Assembly: GCA_030745835.1 (NCBI GenBank) | Contig: JASLNU010000077.1 | Location: forward strand, 4,521-68,520 | Length of the DNA: 64,000 bases | Reading direction: 5' to 3' | From: Rhodospirillales bacterium | GTDB taxonomy: Bacteria; Pseudomonadota; Alphaproteobacteria; Rhodospirillales; UBA2165 | Shown here: piece after piece, positions 1,888 through 38,864 of the stretch | Numbering within the stretch: the first letter of the stretch is position 1 | Layout of the letters: each line of letters begins with the position of its first letter | Notes under the pieces: generated by a model | What the model was told of the DNA's origin: nothing | Database searches by the model: none | Seen by the model: only the letters and a program-made list of their open reading frames with translations | Made by a program: the position numbers and the translations under genes

Positions 1888-2083
1888 GGCTCTTGTCCTG
1901 TCTTTGGCCTATCCCTGGCCAGCAATGATTTTAGTAAACATGCGGCTCACTATGCGGCAAAACGGTTGCTAAACGATTGCCAACTGGCCGCTAAATTTGG
2001 CCCACTGCCGCCGAAACCCCGGCGCCGTAGACCGCGCCGGCAAGGGTATCGGCGTTCCGGCCCCCGCGCAACAACGGAGGCAA

Positions 2084-2138
2084 AGCCCGCGTGGGGATGG
2101 CCAGGTTGGCCACGCGGGCGTCGATCTTGGCACCTGTT
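2084..2138 (+). repeat. Intergenic repeat family, copy 1 (AGCCCG..TGGGGATGGCC..GGCCA..CGGGCGTCGATCTTGGCACCTGTT)
   Basis: Near-identical to 38525-38582 and related to 17901-17972, 18289-18344 and 20435-20519 (inverted). Followed by GGTATGAAACGGTA (2148-2161), whose reverse complement is at 18159-18172. Confidence 0.6.
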
Positions 2139-2312
2139 CTTGAAGGGGTATGAAACGGTATGAAAGTACTGGTCAATTTTCCGGAAATATCTCGCACGAG
2201 GAAATGCGCCCTGTACACGGCGGGGTTGCCGGTGGCGGCAACGCAGTTGTGCTTGACGCGGGCGGGCTGATTCTAGTGAATAGCCCAGGCAACTAATCCG
2301 GGACGGACTCCG

Positions 2313-3827
2313 ATGGCGGACAAAAACTTACGGGATTTCATGGCGCGGCTGGAAGCCGCCGGCGAGCTGGTGCGGGTGTCGGAGCCGGTGTCGCCGGTTT
2401 TGGAAATGACCGAGATTCAGACCCGGCTGCTGGCCGAGGGCGGGCCCGCCGTGTTGTTCGAAAACGTCGTCGGCGAGGACGGCCGCAAATACGATATGCC
2501 GATGCTGGTCAATCTGTTCGGCACCGTCAGGCGCGCCGCCTGGGGCATGGGGCGGGAGCCCGATAGTTTAAGGGAATTGGGCGAGACCCTGGCCTTCCTG
2601 CGCCAGCCGGAACCGCCGGGCGGTTTCAAGGAAGCGGTCGGCATGCTGCCGCTGGTCAAGACGGCGCTCTCGATGCGCCCGAAAACGGTGAGCGCCGCGC
2701 CCTGCCAGGAAGTGGTCTGGGAGGGCGATGAGATCGATCTCGGCCGCCTGCCGATCCAGACCTGCTGGCCCGGCGAGCCGGCGCCGCTGATCACCTGGCC
2801 CTTGGTGGTAACGCCGAAGCCGGGCGAGGCTGATGCCGACAATTTCAACATCGGCATCTACCGCCTGCAGGTGACCGGCCCGGACACCACCTATGTGCGC
2901 TGGCTGAAGCACCGGGGCGGCGCCCAGGCGCACGCCGCGCAAGGTGCGCAATCGGCGGAGCCGCTGCCCGCCGCCGTCGTCATCGGCACCGATCCGGCGA
3001 CCATCCTGGCCGCCGTCGCGCCGGTGCCCGACACCATGAGCGAATACCAGTTCGCCGGCCTGTTGCGCGGCGACCGGGTGGCGCTGACCGAATGCAAGAC
3101 GGTGCCGATTAAAGTCCCGGCCGAGGCCGAGATCGTCATCGAGGGGCATGTGTCGCTGACCGAAACCGGCGACGAGGGACCCTATGGCGATCACACCGGC
3201 TATTTCAACGCCGTCGATAAATTCCCGGTGTTCAAGATCAGCGCCATCACCATGCGCCGCGACGCCATCTATTTGTCCACCTTCACCGGGCGGCCGCCGG
3301 ACGAGCCCTCGGTGCTGGGCGAGGCGTTGAACGATGTCTTCGTGCCTTTGTTGATCCAGCAGTTCCCGGAAATCGTCGATTTCTGGCTGCCGCCCGAGGG
3401 CTGTTCCTACCGCCTTGCCGTCGTTTCGATCAAGAAAACCTATCCCGGCCAGGCCAAGCGCATGATGATGGCGGTCTGGTCCTATCTGCGCCAGTTCCTC
3501 TATACCAAGGTGGTGATCATCGTTGACGACGACATCGATGTGCGCAGCTGGAAAGACGTGATCTGGGCCATCACGACGCGCATGGACCCGGTGCGCGACG
3601 TCACCCTGGTCGACGGCACGCCGATCGATTACCTGGACTTCGCCTCGCCCGAGCCCGGCCTCGGCGGCAAGATGGGGCTCGATGCAACCAACAAGTTGCC
3701 GCCCGAAACCAGCCGCGAATGGGGCGTCAAGCTGCGCATGAGCGACGCGGTGATCGCCAAGGTCGATGAAATGTGGGACAAGCTTGGCCTGCCGGGAAGC
3801 GGCAAAGACATCTGGAAGGGAGACTGA
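2313..3827 (+). CDS. ubiD: UbiD-family (prenylated-FMN dependent) aromatic acid decarboxylase
   Basis: 504 aa. The N-terminus [30 protein letters not shown]...AVLFENV and the length are typical of UbiD (3-octaprenyl-4-hydroxybenzoate carboxy-lyase). Confidence 0.85.
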
Positions 3828-3833
3828 ACGCGC

Positions 3834-5171
3834 ATGTCCGGGGAAATGCTGGAAATTCTGCAAGGCCTGCTGGCCCGCGCCAAAAAGGCCGGCGCCGACG
3901 CCGGCGACGCGGTCCATATCGAAAGCCGCTCGCTGTCGGTGGGCCAGCGCTTAGGGGAGCCGGAAAAGCTGGAGCGTTCGGAAAGCGCCGATGTCGGTTT
4001 GCGCGTTTTCGTTGGCAAGAAGCAGGCCATCGTTTCGTCTTCGGACATCGCCGAGGAGACCCTCGCTGAATTGGCGGAACGGGCCGTCGCCATGGCCCGC
4101 GCGGTGCCCGAAGACCCCTATTGCGGGCTCGCCGAGCCCGGTCAATTGGCCACCGATATTCCGGCCCTCGATATGTGCGATCCCGCCGAGCCCAACGCTG
4201 AAACCCTGATCGATTGGGCCAACCGGGCCGAGGACACGGCGCGCGCCGTCGAGGGGGTCAGCAATTCAGAAGGCGCCGAGGCGGGCTGGGGCCGGGCCCA
4301 GGTTTCGGTGATCGCCAGCAACGGCTTTTCACAATCCTATGCCGGCTCCCACTATTCCCTGAGCGCCTCGGTGCTGGCCGGCAGCGGCACCGGGATGGAG
4401 CGCGATTACGATTACACCGGCGCCGTCTATGGCGGCGATCTGGAAACCCCGGAAGAGATCGGCCAAAACGCCGGGGAGCGCACCGTCAAAAGGCTGAACC
4501 CGAAGAAAGTAGCGAGCGGCCAGGTGCCCATCGTCTATGATCCGCGCGTATCCAGGAGCCTGGTCAACCATTTCGCCAACGCCATCAACGGCGCCGCCAT
4601 CGCCCGCGAAACCAGTTTCCTGAAGGATTGCATGGACCAGCGGATATTCCCCGCGACGGTCAATATCATCGACGATCCGCACCGCCACCGGGGCCTCCGC
4701 TCGAAACCCTTCGACGGCGAAGGCGTCGCCAACAAGCGCCGCAATGTGATCGAGGCGGGCACCCTGACCACCTGGTTCCTGGATCTGCGCTCGGCGCGGC
4801 AATTGGGGCTGGAAACCACCGGGCACGCGTCCAGAGGCGCCGGCTCGCCGCCCTCGCCCTCGGCATCCAACCTTTACATGGACAACGGCGATATCGGCCG
4901 CGATGCGCTATTGAAAGACGTCAAATCGGGCCTCTACGTGACCGAACTGATCGGCTTCGGGGTCAACGGCCTGACCGGCGATTACAGCCGCGGCGCCGCC
5001 GGCTTCTGGATCGAGGATGGCGAACTCGCCTACCCGGTCTCAGAAGTGACCATCGCCGGCAACTTGAAGGACATGTTCCTGGAACTGACCGCCGCCGACG
5101 ACCTGAAACTGCGCTACGGCGTCGATGCGCCGACCTTGCGCATCGACGGCATGACCCTGGCCGGGACTTGA
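3834..5171 (+). CDS. pmbA: PmbA/TldD-family metalloprotease
   Basis: 445 aa. The C-terminal region ...GDYSRGAAGFWIEDGELAYPVSEVTIAGNLKDMF... is characteristic of PmbA/TldD. It starts 6 nt after ubiD. Confidence 0.8.
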   Translation: MSGEMLEILQGLLARAKKAGADAGDAVHIESRSLSVGQRLGEPEKLERSESADVGLRVFVGKKQAIVSSSDIAEETLAELAERAVAMARAVPEDPYCGLAEPGQLATDIPALDMCDPAEPNAETLIDWANRAEDTARAVEGVSNSEGAEAGWGRAQVSVIASNGFSQSYAGSHYSLSASVLAGSGTGMERDYDYTGAVYGGDLETPEEIGQNAGERTVKRLNPKKVASGQVPIVYDPRVSRSLVNHFANAINGAAIARETSFLKDCMDQRIFPATVNIIDDPHRHRGLRSKPFDGEGVANKRRNVIEAGTLTTWFLDLRSARQLGLETTGHASRGAGSPPSPSASNLYMDNGDIGRDALLKDVKSGLYVTELIGFGVNGLTGDYSRGAAGFWIEDGELAYPVSEVTIAGNLKDMFLELTAADDLKLRYGVDAPTLRIDGMTLAGT

Positions 5172-17750: not shown

Positions 17751-17786
17751 TTATTCCTTATCACTGGCCGGCAAAATTTCCGGATG

Positions 17787-17893
17787 CGACATATTTCGGC
17801 AATTTGAGGCATGGACATCCTGGTCATTTATAGACATTTGTGGACATTCGCGGACATTTCCCAAGGGTTTTCACCACAGAGACGGTGAGACGC
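17787..17893 (+). repeat. Mosaic intergenic element, left module A (GCGACATATTTCG + five 10-bp-phased GGACAT-type boxes)
   Basis: Aligns with 37038-37132. Boxes GGACAT 17813, GGTCAT 17822, AGACAT 17832, GGACAT 17842 and GGACAT 17852 are each followed by a short T-tract. Confidence 0.6.
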
Positions 17894-17900
17894 AAAGGGC

Positions 17901-17972
17901 ACAGCCCCAACGAAAAATTATTGGGGGATGGCATGGCTGGCCACGCGGGCGTCCGGTCGGGCACGGGAACCA
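17901..17972 (+). repeat. Intergenic repeat family, copy 2
   Basis: ACAGCCCC..TGGGGGATGGCATGGCTGGCCACGCGGGCGTCCGGTCGGGCACGGGAAC is the same consensus as copies 1, 3, 5 and 6. Confidence 0.55.
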
Positions 17973-18015
17973 GTATTCTTCTCGCACCGCACCAGATAAT
18001 TTTCTCACCGTCTTT

Positions 18016-18043
18016 CCCCCTCCCCACTCCGAGGGGGAGGGCC
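18016..18043. repeat. G/C hairpin (CCCTCCCC-loop-GGGGAGGG), REP-like
   Basis: 8-bp stem 18018-18025 / 18034-18041 with an 8-nt loop. A similar hairpin, CTTCCCCC..GGGGGAAG, lies at about 18394-18423. Confidence 0.5.
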
Positions 18044-18251
18044 GGGGTGGGGGGGCAAAACCCAGCATCGCGCCAAGACCGACGCCCGCCTGGCCAACCA
18101 TTCCACGCCTAAGCGGGCTGCATCGATTTCCCACCATACCGGATCACCATCATTCCTACCGTTTCATACCTATTTATACCGCTCCAACGGGTCAAGCCCG
18201 CCGCGCCAGCGCACCGCATATTCTTGAAGTAAATGAAGAAGGTTGAGTATA

Positions 18252-18266
18252 GAACAAAAAAGGAAC
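18252..18266 (+). promoter_or_regulatory. GAAC-N7-GAAC motif (form of the alphaproteobacterial LexA/SOS operator)
   Basis: Exact GAACaaaaaagGAAC. It sits in a 35-nt block (GTATAGAACA...GAACAA.TGCAAG.AAA) that is conserved at 37226-37260. Confidence 0.35.
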
Positions 18267-18288
18267 AATTGCAAGGAAATATGATAGA

Positions 18289-18344
18289 AGCAGCCCGGCT
18301 GGGGATGGCCGGGTCGGCCAGCCGGGCGTGAGGTACACTCGGAA
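18289..18344 (+). repeat. Intergenic repeat family, copy 3 (left bracket of the low-GC cassette)
   Basis: AGCAGCCCGGCTGGGGATGGCCGGGTCGGCCAGCCGGGCGTGAGGTACACTCGGAA. The reverse complement of 20435-20519 shares both ends (AGCAGCCCG ... ACTCGGAA). Confidence 0.6.
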
Positions 18345-18630
18345 ATATATTATGCAGGTGTAATACAAAACCTCCTCATTGCTTGTGGCGCCCCCATCCC
18401 GGCCTTCCCCCATGGCGGGGGGAAGCGCTATTTCGTGACAACGGTACACACATTTCACGGTTATTAGCCCTCTATTAGTATACTGTACCTAAAATAGCAT
18501 TCGCTCCTAATCAAGGGTGGCCACCATAGCAAGATTACGTTGCCGTATGACGTGAGAAGGTAGGTGAAAAAATTCAGTTCCAGATTATTTTTGAAAAATC
18601 AATTCCTACCGCCAAAGGGAAATCGTTCAA

Positions 18631-19497
18631 ATGCAATTCAACGACCTTTTAGAGAACCAGAGTATCGACCCGGAAACCGTTCTGGTGTTACGCCACCGTC
18701 CGTCCGAGCCGAAGCTGCGGGAAGTGTTTCCTTGGCTGGCGGCCGAGCGTCCAGAACTTTTTAACGCCTATCAACGCATTCAAACTCTTAAAGTGGAAAA
18801 ATCCATGATGAGGGCGAGTTACGTTGCTTCTTTCATCGGGCACGAGTCGGGGAAAGGACTGTTCGTTGGATTGTATCGAAGGGGCCGTTGGCGCCCGTTG
18901 AGCTATGAAGCGTATTGGAGAATGCGCTCCAGCAAGGATTTACGAAAATTTGGGCACGGCGGATTTGCAGGCGAGCGGGAGGCAATTCAATGGTTTAATC
19001 TACGCTTAACGGATTGCTACTCGGATTGGAAAGGACGGCTCGTCGTCAACTGGCCTCCGCCGGAACGTTCATGGTGGCGTTGGGCGGGCCGAAATCAATT
19101 CGCGGTTCATGCAATCCACGAAGAAAGCTTACTCGATCCACCGATGCCGGAGTGGGACAAACTGGATCTGACTTGGAACCAATTGGATGTTCTGCCCTCG
19201 AACCTCCAAGCGGCTCTTCGTCAATGGCGCGGTATCTATTACATCTTCGATGAAGAAAATAAAAAGGGATACGTGGGGGCTGCCTTTGGCCAAGACAATA
19301 TTTTGGGAAGGTGGCTTAACTATGCGAAATCCGGTCACGGCGGAAATAAAAAGCTTCGCAAGCGTGATCCGAGTAAGTTTCGTTTTACGATCCTACAGCG
19401 CGTATCTCCAGACATGGAATCCCAGGATGTCCAAAGACTTGAAGCATCATGGAAGGACCGTCTCCATACCAGAGAGTTTGGTATGAACGAGAACTGA
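18631..19497 (+). CDS. GIY-YIG nuclease-domain protein with an uncharacterised ~190-aa N-terminal domain
   Basis: 288 aa. The C-terminal GIYYIFDEENKKGYVGAAFGQDNILGRWLNY...FRFTILQ...RLEASWKDRLHT...MNEN supplies GIY, Y(V)G, Arg, Glu and Asn of the GIY-YIG core. GC content is lower than the flanks. AAGGGA lies 11 nt upstream of the ATG. Confidence 0.8.
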   Translation: MQFNDLLENQSIDPETVLVLRHRPSEPKLREVFPWLAAERPELFNAYQRIQTLKVEKSMMRASYVASFIGHESGKGLFVGLYRRGRWRPLSYEAYWRMRSSKDLRKFGHGGFAGEREAIQWFNLRLTDCYSDWKGRLVVNWPPPERSWWRWAGRNQFAVHAIHEESLLDPPMPEWDKLDLTWNQLDVLPSNLQAALRQWRGIYYIFDEENKKGYVGAAFGQDNILGRWLNYAKSGHGGNKKLRKRDPSKFRFTILQRVSPDMESQDVQRLEASWKDRLHTREFGMNEN

Positions 19498-19548
19498 TTA
19501 TCAAGTTTCTGGAATTCTTTTTCCTTTGACAATCATTGGAGGGTAGGA

Positions 19549-20106
19549 ATGGATTGGGACCGATTTGATAAAGCCCTATTTCGTTGCCTAAACGACATAG
19601 AGATTGTGAAAGCGCAGAGAACGGCGCACCAGGTGTTAAGGAAAACGGTTTCTAATTCGCGTGATGTTCGCTCTGGTTTTCCAGGTCTTGTAAATGCAGC
19701 ATTTAGTTTTTCGACTCAAGGGGTATTAGCTTTAATTTTGGAAAAACAAACTACGAAGGGACGGTCTGGATTTTGGTGGGTTCACCGTGAAGCGTTAAAT
19801 CACGTTTCCGGATATTCACCTGAACAGGAAGATATCGACTTTCTCAATGAATTTTCCTCAGCGATTAAGGTGTTAAGAGATAAATCCTTGTTTCACATTA
19901 GTGAAATTACGCTCCACGACCCGAAGACATTTCGGCAAAATACCGGTCTTACCTACAGAAAGATGGACAAAGCGATTTCAGTTTCGTTGGCCACGATGCG
20001 TGAAATTTTGAAACTTCGCCGTGGCTCAACCACCTGGAGTTCTGGAACTCTTGATGTAGCCACACTCCATTATGATGGCTCGGACATCCCAAGCATTTTT
20101 GACTAA
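19549..20106 (+). CDS. Hypothetical protein with an R-x5-H (HEPN-like) motif
   Basis: 185 aa and AT-rich, with GGAGGG 7 nt upstream of the ATG, lying 51 nt downstream of the GIY-YIG gene. The motif LRDKSLFH (R110...H116) resembles the R[ND]xxxxH HEPN signature. I recognise no other family features. Confidence 0.5.
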   Translation: MDWDRFDKALFRCLNDIEIVKAQRTAHQVLRKTVSNSRDVRSGFPGLVNAAFSFSTQGVLALILEKQTTKGRSGFWWVHREALNHVSGYSPEQEDIDFLNEFSSAIKVLRDKSLFHISEITLHDPKTFRQNTGLTYRKMDKAISVSLATMREILKLRRGSTTWSSGTLDVATLHYDGSDIPSIFD

Positions 20107-20298
20107 ATAGTCTTAGATTTATATTCGATTAGAACGTTGTATATATTTCATTTCGAGCTTGAAAATTGTTAGGTTTAAGAAGGAGTGGAGATACTGACAG
20201 AGTGGAAAGATGTCAGATAACTTGAGCCCCGAAATTGATGGTCAAAAGCGATATAAAATTCTTTTAGAGCACTATAGATGGGAACAATCGTCCTTTTA

Positions 20299-20327
20299 GA
20301 GCATAGGGGTCATGAGCATAGGGGTCA
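20299..20327. repeat. Tandem direct repeat GAGCATAGGGGTCA x2 (15-bp period)
   Basis: Copies at 20299-20312 and 20314-20327. CTTTTAGAGCA also occurs twice (20261, 20293). Confidence 0.5.
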
Positions 20328-20434
20328 GGTCTTGAATCGTGAATTTGCCTTCCTCCACGCTTCGACAATCTTGCTGCCGGAACGTGCCTTATTAACGCTG
20401 TGAGTTGTCAAGTCCGATCCCCGCATGAACTGAG

Positions 20435-20519
20435 TTCCGAGTCTAGCCGGACGGCCAATCGGCCAACCATGCCATCCCCGATTGGCCTGCTCCCGTGGGC
20501 CAACCCCATGCGGGCTGCT
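20435..20519 (-). repeat. Intergenic repeat family, copy 4 (long form, inverted; right bracket of the low-GC cassette)
   Basis: The reverse complement reads AGCAGCCCGCATGGGGTTGGCCCACGGGAGCAGGCCAATCGGGGATGGCATGGTTGGCCGATTGGCCGTCCGGCTAGACTCGGAA. It is near-identical to 38599-38687 and abuts or overlaps the glcB stop codon. Confidence 0.6.
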
Positions 20520-38524: not shown

Positions 38525-38582
38525 ACAGCCCGCCTGGGGATGGCCGGGTCGGCCAGACGGGCGTCGATCTTGGCACCTGTTT
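38525..38582 (+). repeat. Intergenic repeat family, copy 5
   Basis: ACAGCCCGCCTGGGGATGGCCGGGTCGGCCAGACGGGCGTCGATCTTGGCACCTGTT. It starts 3 nt after the preceding stop codon and is near-identical to copy 1. Confidence 0.6.
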
Positions 38583-38598
38583 ATATTTTAGCCACCAA

Positions 38599-38687
38599 CA
38601 GCCGCGCGGGCGGGGGATGGCCCACGGGAACAGGCCAATCGGGGTTGGCATGGTTGGCCGATTGGCCGTCCGGCATGGCACTTGTCC
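38599..38687 (+). repeat. Intergenic repeat family, copy 6 (long form)
   Basis: Contains the hairpin GGCCAATCGG-(15 nt)-CCGATTGGCC. It matches the reverse complement of 20435-20519 almost base for base. Confidence 0.6.
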
Positions 38688-38778
38688 AAATTTTGGCGGC
38701 CCAATATCCGTCCGCGCTCCGATGTGGCGCTCCGCTTATTTGCGAAAGGCGTGGCCGGAGCATCTCTCTCCGAATCAT

Positions 38779-38864
38779 CGGGACGGCCGATTGGCCAACC
38801 GGACCATCCAGTCGCGAATCTCCGGGGCGGCCGATTGGCCAACCCGGCCAATCCCCAATCGGCC
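38779..38864. repeat. Intergenic repeat family, copy 7 (degenerate, partly inverted; two CGGCCGATTGGCCAAC units)
   Basis: GGACGGCCGATTGGCCAACCGG...GGCGGCCGATTGGCCAACCCGGCCAATCCCCAATCGGCC. Confidence 0.5.

Follow-up and report, generated by a model that had tools for sequence, protein, structure and literature searches.

Two families of defence genes are the closest described relatives of the genes analysed here. Uzume is a single-gene GIY-YIG anti-phage system attributed to Millman et al. 2022. Since the name Uzume is absent from the original preprint of these authors, its single-gene status is taken from later papers. The HEPN proteins of the AbiU2 family (PF18734), which includes the lactococcal AbiU locus, are associated with defence islands and restriction-modification (R-M) systems (Anantharaman et al. 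2013, PMC3710099). HEPN proteins share the signature R-x4-6-H, in which a polar residue (N, D or H) follows the arginine, and this motif sits where a long helix ends and the following loop begins (PMC3710099). Resistance to T4 and T7 was reported for an integron cassette of Vibrio mimicus MB461 that carries a stand-alone AbiU2-domain gene (HNPBCG_15845; bioRxiv 10.64898/2026.03.17.712381).

We analysed a locus carrying one homologue of each family, side by side, in a contig of Rhodospirillales. The host is an abundant, uncultured marine alphaproteobacterium. In what follows, the window is the whole stretch of DNA that was analysed, i.e., 64,000 nucleotides.

A lineage-specific insertion between glcB and dctP

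The start codon of dctP (17750) and the stop codon of glcB (20518) are separated by 2,767 bp in the window, with the following features:

17751..20517, no strand: the lineage-specific insertion in full, delimited by the start codon of dctP and the stop codon of glcB
17751..18288, no strand: non-coding DNA (GC 0.535) that contains two REP-like units
17924-17974, plus strand: REP-like unit inside this stretch
18081-18121, minus strand: REP-like unit inside this stretch
18289..18344, plus strand: left bracketing unit, a REP-like hairpin with a 10-bp stem (-29.4 kcal/mol, z -2.7)
18345..18630, plus strand: leader of ORF1, AT-rich (GC 0.448), presumed promoter region from its composition
18631-19497 (18631..19497), plus strand: ORF1, uzuA homologue of 288 aa, whose N-terminal domain (1-190) is uncharacterised and whose C-terminal domain (201-288) is a GIY-YIG nuclease
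19549-20106, plus strand: ORF2, 185 aa, divergent AbiU2-family HEPN protein
20107..20434, no strand: non-coding 3' tail of the core, AT-rich (GC 0.415)
20435..20519, minus strand: right bracketing REP-like composite unit, which begins directly at the glcB stop codon
2084-2135, 38526-38580, 38613-38674 and 38781-38860: further repeat copies in the window

We compared the glcB-dctP junction with that of three sister species and found an empty site in all of them, with neither repeats nor cargo. In two of these genomes (L023 and L027) the stop codon of glcB and the start codon of dctP overlap as TAATG, and in the third (L067) they are 8 nt apart. Given the overlap in the sister species, all 2,767 bp are specific to the lineage. 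The segment is foreign DNA, an insertion, which agrees with an earlier note on this locus, made from the sequence alone, that had called it non-core and compositionally foreign. Contigs from the same population, all of them retrieved with the ORF2 sequence itself, are 99.9-100% identical.

The core of the insertion (18345-20434) has a GC content of 0.462, against 0.604 across the window, and this is the minimum when 2,090-bp windows are taken across the 64 kb; away from the locus, the lowest value is 0.506. The GC content at third codon positions (GC3) is 0.81 for dctP and glcB, 0.54 for ORF1, and 0.41 for ORF2, and the dissimilarity of the last two suggests that these genes have differing histories. 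As described in the earlier note, the core is AT-richer than its surroundings and the two ORFs lie on the same strand, 51 nt apart, each with its own Shine-Dalgarno sequence (AAGGGA 5' of ORF1, GGAGG 5' of ORF2). Considering this spacing and that no terminator-like site was found in the insert, including between the two ORFs, they are probably co-transcribed. Matches to promoters in the insert are no more numerous than in shuffled controls.

We also searched the non-coding parts of the insertion. The stretch at 17751-18288 probably now bears the promoter of dctP, and it contains a sigma-70-like match (18274..18246, minus strand) that is a consensus match only. In the leader of ORF1, the Rfam scan gave no family and no credible ORF was found. 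The 3' tail, where the end of the acquired DNA may have decayed, holds a short tandem repeat (GAGCATAGGGGTCA x2); neither credible small ORFs nor remnants of the genes adjoining ORF2 homologues elsewhere were found in it. The sole Rfam hit in the insert is sub-threshold and due to chance, and hence an antitoxin RNA or a retron-like ncRNA is absent from it.

ORF1 is a homologue of UzuA

ORF1 matches the PADLOC profile of UzuA, PDLC03973, over its full length (E 9e-78, 259.6 bits, residues 1-288 on positions 3-278 of 278), and a second UzuA model, PDLC03974, with an E-value of 3.7e-39. The Pfam profile of GIY-YIG (PF01541) matches residues 201-280 (E 1.9e-5) with a score of 25.3 bits, which exceeds the gathering cutoff of 22.6. 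The nuclease core is complete, as the earlier note had recognised: GIY at 201-203, YVG at 214-216, R227, E271, and N288 are all present. Across 120 homologues of ORF1, the positions G201, Y203, Y214, G216, R227, E271, N286, and N288 are conserved at 98% or more. A sequence search for solved structures returned nothing relevant for ORF1. Judged by these sequence matches, ORF1 is UzuA, a member of the published single-gene Uzume system. The earlier note knew of no named system with the pairing of ORF1 and ORF2.

Homologues of UzuA form more than 2,150 clusters at around 60% identity, in Planctomycetota, Acidobacteriota, and Alphaproteobacteria, and are carried by 260 plasmids. They were solitary in 9 of the 9 contexts that we sampled, and no conserved neighbour was found across them. 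These contexts include a Shedu/AbiE island, ABC-transporter and tad-pilus operons in which the gene is a solo insertion, and transposase or conjugation regions of plasmids. ORF1 thus has in common with Uzume the end-to-end profile match, the length class, and the C-terminal GIY-YIG domain, while its homologues share the habit of a solitary gene in defence islands or on mobile DNA. Nothing substantive in the sequence sets it apart. It differs in its source, a marine Rhodospirillales population that is uncultured, and in being followed by a HEPN gene, which the described Uzume system lacks.

ORF2 is a divergent HEPN protein of the AbiU2 family

ORF2 contains LRDKSLFH (R110-D-K-S-L-F-H116), where a polar residue follows the arginine. 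Searched alone against Pfam, NCBIfam, PADLOC, and PHROGs, it gave nothing usable; weak NCBIfam matches to HdrA and NadS were dismissed as noise. A profile search with ORF2 gave 65 relatives, and 45 of the 59 that were aligned match PF18734 (HEPN_AbiU2), with a best E-value of 7e-13 and most of the model covered. The assignment of ORF2 to AbiU2 is therefore indirect, by way of relatives matching PF18734, as ORF2 itself has no Pfam match. The alignment by hhalign of the profile of the ORF2 subfamily with that of the relatives from the profile search has a probability of 99.9% (E 1.5e-32). In the 59 sequences, which are around 20-25% identical, no columns other than R110 and H116 are invariant. 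The AF2 model of ORF2 is all-alpha with a pLDDT of 96, and places the R-D-x4-H motif where a long helix gives way to the next loop; an earlier model built from 5 sequences (pLDDT 49) was set aside. A relevant solved structure was not found in a sequence-profile search of the PDB.

From its relatives and its motif, we class ORF2 as a divergent HEPN protein of the AbiU2 family. The earlier note had seen that the R-x4-6-H signature fits HEPN RNases, and the invariance of R110 and H116 bears it out, but it could place ORF2 in no family. We predict that ORF2 is a metal-independent RNase with R110-x5-H116 as its catalytic motif. In common with the AbiU2 family, it is an all-alpha protein of around 185 aa, the invariant R-[DN]-x4-H of its group aligns with the family motif IRDKTHFHID, and its relatives are found in defence-island or R-M settings such as those listed for AbiU2 (PMC3710099). 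Unlike the family, ORF2 and its 6 closest relatives fall short of the Pfam model and have no PADLOC model, and ORF2 adjoins neither a Sel1-repeat partner nor an AbiU1-like gene.

The subfamily is a rare and divergent AbiU2-HEPN clade missed by Pfam and PADLOC. It has 5 close clusters among 5.8 billion proteins, scans of metagenomes and viruses gave no new loci, and ORF2 was not found in plasmid and phage collections. At the locus, we saw neither a regulator nor an antitoxin that could serve the HEPN protein. The V. mimicus MB461 cassette resembles ORF2 by its description, being mobile and encoding one small HEPN-AbiU2 protein, although that gene is in an integron and an integron context is absent around ORF2. 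By analogy, we regard it as the foremost functional precedent for a stand-alone action of ORF2.

The bracketing repeats are REP-like

The core is bracketed by inverted repeat copies, 18289-18344 on the plus and 20435-20519 on the minus strand, which both read AGCAGCCCG...ACTCGGAA with the AGCAGCCCG end outward, as the earlier note had reported. These repeats are members of a REP-like family of intergenic hairpins. The left unit aligns with 6 other copies in the window, the right unit has 95% identity over 62 nt to the copy at 38613-38674, and the intergenic stretch between glcB and dctP holds four copies. Like REP and BIME, they are GC-rich imperfect palindromes of around 35-40 nt, located directly after stop codons, single or clustered, in either orientation, and their stem sequences vary compensatorily between copies. 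What sets the family apart is its restriction to this genome, and it was matched to no described REP.

Since the family is found at other intergenic sites, the bracketing copies are probably not the ends of a transposon. The earlier note had described them as bracketing the cassette, with two caveats that hold here: the repeat also occurs elsewhere, and no direct repeat that would be a target-site duplication was found at the cassette borders. The cassette is unlikely to be the cargo of a small non-autonomous mobile element, REPIN- or MITE-like and mobilised in trans, with the inverted repeats as its ends. Such an element would fit the inverted orientation with the same end outward and the absence of both repeats and cargo from the site in sister species. 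It would also fit the inner end TA[C/G]ACTCGGAA, common to the two bracketing copies only and lying exactly at the boundaries in GC/AT composition, but this 11-mer coincidence is within chance by count (at least 2 matches in 27 of 100 shuffles). The missing target-site duplication speaks against it, as does a generic family that is solitary or clustered at other gene ends (2084-2135, 38526-38860) and has two more copies outside the bracket in the same intergenic stretch. Furthermore, the arms are unequal (56 vs 85 nt) and only 74-86% complementary over 22-31 nt, and the GC content of the repeats is host-like (0.67-0.73) against 0.46 for the cargo.

Probably two independent genes rather than one system

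The pairing of UzuA with ORF2 is not conserved. An AbiU2-like neighbour of UzuA was found in 0 of the 9 independent contexts (8 loci by sensitive HMM search, 3 plasmid loci by annotation). The five informative contexts of the ORF2 subfamily have different neighbours in each case: an FRG/PDC-S15 gene (E 3e-73) with HNH, type I RM, and GmrSD nearby in the locus L001, a SIR2 gene in the locus L002, and unknowns. Hence, the families of ORF1 and ORF2 do not co-localise, an outcome that the earlier note had named beforehand as contradicting its proposal of one module. Its further suggestion of an undescribed defence or toxin system gives way to two named families, Uzume and AbiU2.

One could still conceive of ORF1 and ORF2 as a single cooperating system, i.e., a new variant of Uzume, in which a DNase and an RNase effector would respond to a common trigger or the HEPN protein would modulate UzuA. 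In Lactococcus, AbiU2 is proposed to modulate AbiU1. We find such a system quite improbable. The 51-nt same-strand spacing without a terminator match is consistent with it, as is the co-inheritance of the pair at 100% identity in all population contigs, which were retrieved via ORF2. In L001, moreover, the ORF2 homologue is directly downstream, on the same strand, of a candidate single-gene defence protein of around 290 aa (FRG/PDC-S15), and apart from the window no further locus has a defence-like upstream gene in full view. Against it, more than 2,150 UzuA clusters stand beside 5 close ORF2 clusters with no co-occurrence at the family level, no AbiU2-like ORF was detected around UzuA elsewhere, the neighbours of ORF2 relatives are unrelated, the GC3 of the two genes is unlike, and, in the literature, one gene suffices for Uzume. 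L001 and the window, being two cases, hint that an ORF2-type gene behind a single-gene defence candidate is a non-random arrangement. A broader idea, that AbiU2-like HEPN genes of this rare subfamily are "piggy-back" modules cooperating with the various single-gene nuclease-type defence genes that precede them, is a long shot. The cases at hand are UzuA in the window and FRG/PDC-S15 in L001. If true, ORF2-type genes might add an RNase-based abortive-infection arm or regulate the upstream nuclease, and the window would hold a new two-component variant of Uzume.

It is very unlikely that one or both genes have no role in defence and are selfish or housekeeping instead, with ORF1 as a homing-type GIY-YIG endonuclease and ORF2 as an inactive relic or as a toxin left from a degraded toxin-antitoxin pair. 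GIY-YIG domains do occur in homing endonucleases, and ORF1 matches TIGR01453 weakly (E 2.8e-4), far short of its cutoff; UzuA homologues are also solo insertions in housekeeping operons or on plasmids, and the HEPN gene has no visible partner antitoxin. However, the UzuA match is full-length and extends over the N-terminal domain, a part absent from homing endonucleases, both ORFs are intact with conserved catalytic residues, homologues elsewhere have defence genes as neighbours, and an intron or intein context is absent.

The defence role put forward in the earlier note thus remains the best reading. We consider it likely that the locus is a small, horizontally acquired defence islet, with two independent single-gene anti-phage modules adjacent by chance. 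The foreign DNA landed exactly between the translationally coupled glcB and dctP, and REP-like hairpins of the genome itself are found on both sides in the intergenic space thus created. The GIY-YIG domain of UzuA would cut invading DNA, while its N-terminal domain of around 190 aa presumably serves in target recognition or regulation. Independently, ORF2 would act as a stand-alone metal-independent RNase via R110 and H116 and, upon a phage trigger, confer protection of the abortive-infection type. Both genes would then have an anti-phage phenotype in this host.

Implications

The locus is probably an ordinary small defence island made of two named families, and not a new two-gene system. It is a clean negative, in which an apparent new DNase-plus-RNase system, recognised by eye, resolves into known components. 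Current defence finders would detect only one of the two genes, and the ORF2 subfamily could extend the models of defence genes. The comparison with the empty site gives an unusually exact view of a defence islet landing between translationally coupled housekeeping genes. As a well-delimited natural uzuA locus, it is a candidate for testing the mechanism of Uzume.

An AT-rich insertion between glcB and dctP

The segment between glcB and dctP, the gene of a TRAP binding protein, carries two same-strand genes separated by 51 nt:

18631-19497, + strand, ORF1, 288 aa, AAGGGA 5' of the start codon
19549-20106, + strand, ORF2, 185 aa, GGAGG 5' of the start codon

The GC content of the core (18345-20434) is 0.462 versus 0.604 in the whole window, the lowest among stretches of 2,090 bp in the 64 kb, and third codon positions have a GC content of 0.54 (ORF1) and 0.41 (ORF2), compared with 0.81 for dctP and glcB on either side. 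Re-reading the region reproduced all that an earlier note had described from the sequence (ORFs, Shine-Dalgarno motifs, composition, repeats, and borders). We found no terminator match between ORF1 and ORF2 and no ncRNA in the insert, and a common transcript starting in the AT-rich leader is probable for the two genes. The tail after ORF2 (20107-20434) has no ORF longer than 41 aa. It contains a tandem duplication of GAGCATAGGGGTCA (two copies with a 15-nt period, 20299-20327) with no apparent function.

The note had advised a comparison of this junction in relatives, and we fetched related loci using the dctP protein as a query. The cassette is absent from three sister species (dctP 72-75% and glcB 83-85% identical), where glcB is directly followed by dctP. 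The stop of glcB and the start of dctP overlap in TAATG in two of these loci (L023, 7990-8005; L027, 7286-7300) and are 8 nt apart in the third (L067, 640-655). Hence, all of the 2,767 bp found in the window between the dctP start (17750) and the glcB stop (20518) are lineage-specific. These arrangements indicate that an insertion of foreign DNA split a translationally coupled glcB-dctP pair; dctP now has to rely on a new promoter. A sigma-70-like consensus match oriented towards dctP lies at 18274..18246 (- strand). In the closest sister MAG (dctP 78% identical), an isochorismatase gene abuts dctP and glcB is absent there (L022, 2322-3952), which implies that the junction was rearranged more than once in the clade. 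The source population consists of globally sampled marine Rhodospirillales (MAG GCA_030747315.1; TARA samples included), and its contigs, retrieved via the ORF2 sequence, carry the cassette and flanks at 99.9-100% identity.

Both genes belong to named families

ORF1 is a homologue of UzuA, the protein of the Uzume defence system, and matches its PADLOC model end to end (PDLC03973, E 9e-78; its residues 1-288 cover positions 3-278 of the 278-position profile). Its residues 201-280 form a GIY-YIG domain (Pfam, above the gathering score), and the nuclease residues recognized earlier by eye (GIY 201-203, YVG 214-216, R227, E271, and the terminal N) are all present. Conservation across 120 homologues is 98% or higher at G201, Y203, Y214, G216, R227, E271, N286, and N288. 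A sequence search with ORF1 found no relevant solved structure. Uzume, credited to Millman et al. 2022, is already published and is listed with single-gene systems having GIY-YIG homology; the literature calls its mechanism unknown or poorly understood. The UzuA family comprises more than 2,150 clusters and keeps around 60% identity across Planctomycetota, Acidobacteriota, and Alphaproteobacteria, and UzuA-like GIY-YIG genes were found on 260 PLSDB plasmids (Klebsiella accounts for 143), all of which fits a horizontally mobile defence gene. Some of these plasmid genes lie directly 3' of conjugation (trb) genes or an integrase gene, suggesting frequent carriage by conjugative elements.

ORF2 alone had no match in Pfam, NCBIfam, PADLOC, or PHROGs, and only 4 close relatives were found among 5.8 billion proteins. 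An exhaustive search with the profile of these five sequences retrieved 65 representatives. In an alignment of 59 sequences, around 20-25% identical to ORF2, R110 and H116 are the only invariant columns (consensus IRDKTHFHID). The Pfam profile PF18734 (HEPN_AbiU2) matches 45 of the 59 aligned members (best E 7e-13), covering most of the model; some of these matches exceed the gathering score and others fall just short of it. When the profile of the ORF2 subfamily (7 sequences) was compared with that of the other 51, the match had a probability of 99.9% (E 1.5e-32), and the R and H were aligned. The AlphaFold2 model of ORF2, made with the deeper alignment, is confident and all-helical (pLDDT 96, pTM 0.90); helix 93-114 has R110 at its end, and H116 lies in the next loop. 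This is the position described for the Rx4-6H motif of the HEPN superfamily, at the helix end or following loop and with a polar residue after R (PMC3710099), which is D111 in ORF2. AbiU2 is a HEPN family that retains the motif and is found in R-M operons (PMC3710099). The sequence evidence thus supports the initial guess of a HEPN protein and identifies ORF2 as a divergent AbiU2-type member, i.e. of a named family. As a stand-alone integron cassette with an AbiU2 domain reportedly protects against T4 and T7 (bioRxiv 10.64898/2026.03.17.712381), ORF2 in principle needs no partner.

No conserved pairing of the two families

We examined nine independent contexts of UzuA: a Shedu/AbiE island, solo insertions in an ABC-transporter operon and among tad-pilus genes, a helicase/SbcCD-like island of Symmachiella, the two closest relatives (70% and 65% identity), and three plasmids. 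None of the nine has an AbiU2-like neighbour, whether judged by annotation or by searching the ORFs of all six frames with a sensitive HMM. The neighbours of ORF2 homologues are unrelated to each other and to ORF1. In locus L001 the homologue lies 3' of an FRG-domain protein (PADLOC candidate single-gene system PDC-S15, E 3e-73) and is followed by an HNH nuclease, a resolvase, a type I R-M system, and GmrSD. It adjoins a SIR2 gene in L002, stands between an ABC-type ATPase and a 233-aa protein of no known family in L003-L006, and is overlapped by a 250-aa ORF of no known family in L104. The window's tail has no remnants of these neighbour genes. In the contexts examined the two families thus do not co-localise, an outcome that the earlier note had itself listed as refuting the two-gene module it proposed. 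Two loci are the basis for the idea that the ORF2 subfamily attaches 3' of varying single-gene nucleases and works together with them, which we regard as unlikely.

L001 is densely packed with candidate systems beside the resolvase, the R-M system, and GmrSD; its FRG-domain protein, ORF2 homologue, and HNH-type protein (PDC-M68A-like) form one same-strand run (1943-5078), upstream of which lies a DUF4145-like ORF with RKIRNHFAH. A same-strand 244-aa gene of no known family overlaps the UzuA homologue P0009 (65% identical) by 22 nt (L106, 3345-4927; also L107 and L108). Nearby are a TIR gene of the ThsB type and a 187-aa ORF whose FRNIAAHG (R-x4-H motif) possibly marks another HEPN family. These surroundings imply that some Uzume loci may have lineage-specific accessory genes.

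The repeats around the cassette

Four copies of one repeat lie in the glcB-dctP stretch:

17924-17974, copy outside the bracket
18081-18121, copy outside the bracket
18289-18344, + strand, bracketing copy
20435-20519, - strand, bracketing copy

Both bracketing copies read AGCAGCCCG...ACTCGGAA with the AGCAGCCCG end outward. Carriage of the cassette by a REPIN- or MITE-like element, with a mechanistic role for these two copies, would be in line with the TA[C/G]ACTCGGAA end occurring only in them, exactly at the composition boundaries. However, the count of such matches is not statistically significant, and two of the four copies in this single intergenic stretch are outside the bracket. The caveats already attached to the bracketing also held: no direct repeat indicative of a target-site duplication is present at the cassette borders, and further copies occur at 2084-2135 and 38526-38860, which, like 20435-20519, are directly 3' of stop codons. 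We consider this mode of carriage unlikely. Seven copies from the window can be aligned on the core CAGCCCGnnTGGGGATGGCnnGGTnGGCCAnnCGGGCGTC. The repeats have a host-like GC content (0.67-0.73) and fold to hairpins with a 10-bp stem whose sequences vary compensatorily between copies. They behave as REP-type extragenic palindromes and not as the cassette's own terminal repeats.

At least two sequence subtypes can be told apart in this REP-like hairpin family, which is specific to the genome, and the cluster at 38.5 kb (38526-38860) is BIME-like, with at least four units in both orientations. Two metagenome contigs (L020 and L102) end inside the repeat-bearing 17751-18288.

Two probably independent defence modules

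The best-supported reading is that ORF1 and ORF2 are two independent modules. The GIY-YIG domain of UzuA would cut invading DNA, with specificity or control given by its uncharacterised N-terminal domain, and the AbiU2-like HEPN protein would cut RNA via R110 and H116 in the manner of abortive infection. The data show the family memberships, the foreign origin, and the absence of a conserved pairing; enzymatic activity and phenotype are inferred. The pair had been put forward as a candidate for an undescribed system. Both genes are in named families, and together they make up an ordinary mini defence island. What is new is only a rare AbiU2 subfamily missed by current models and a precisely delimited insertion site.
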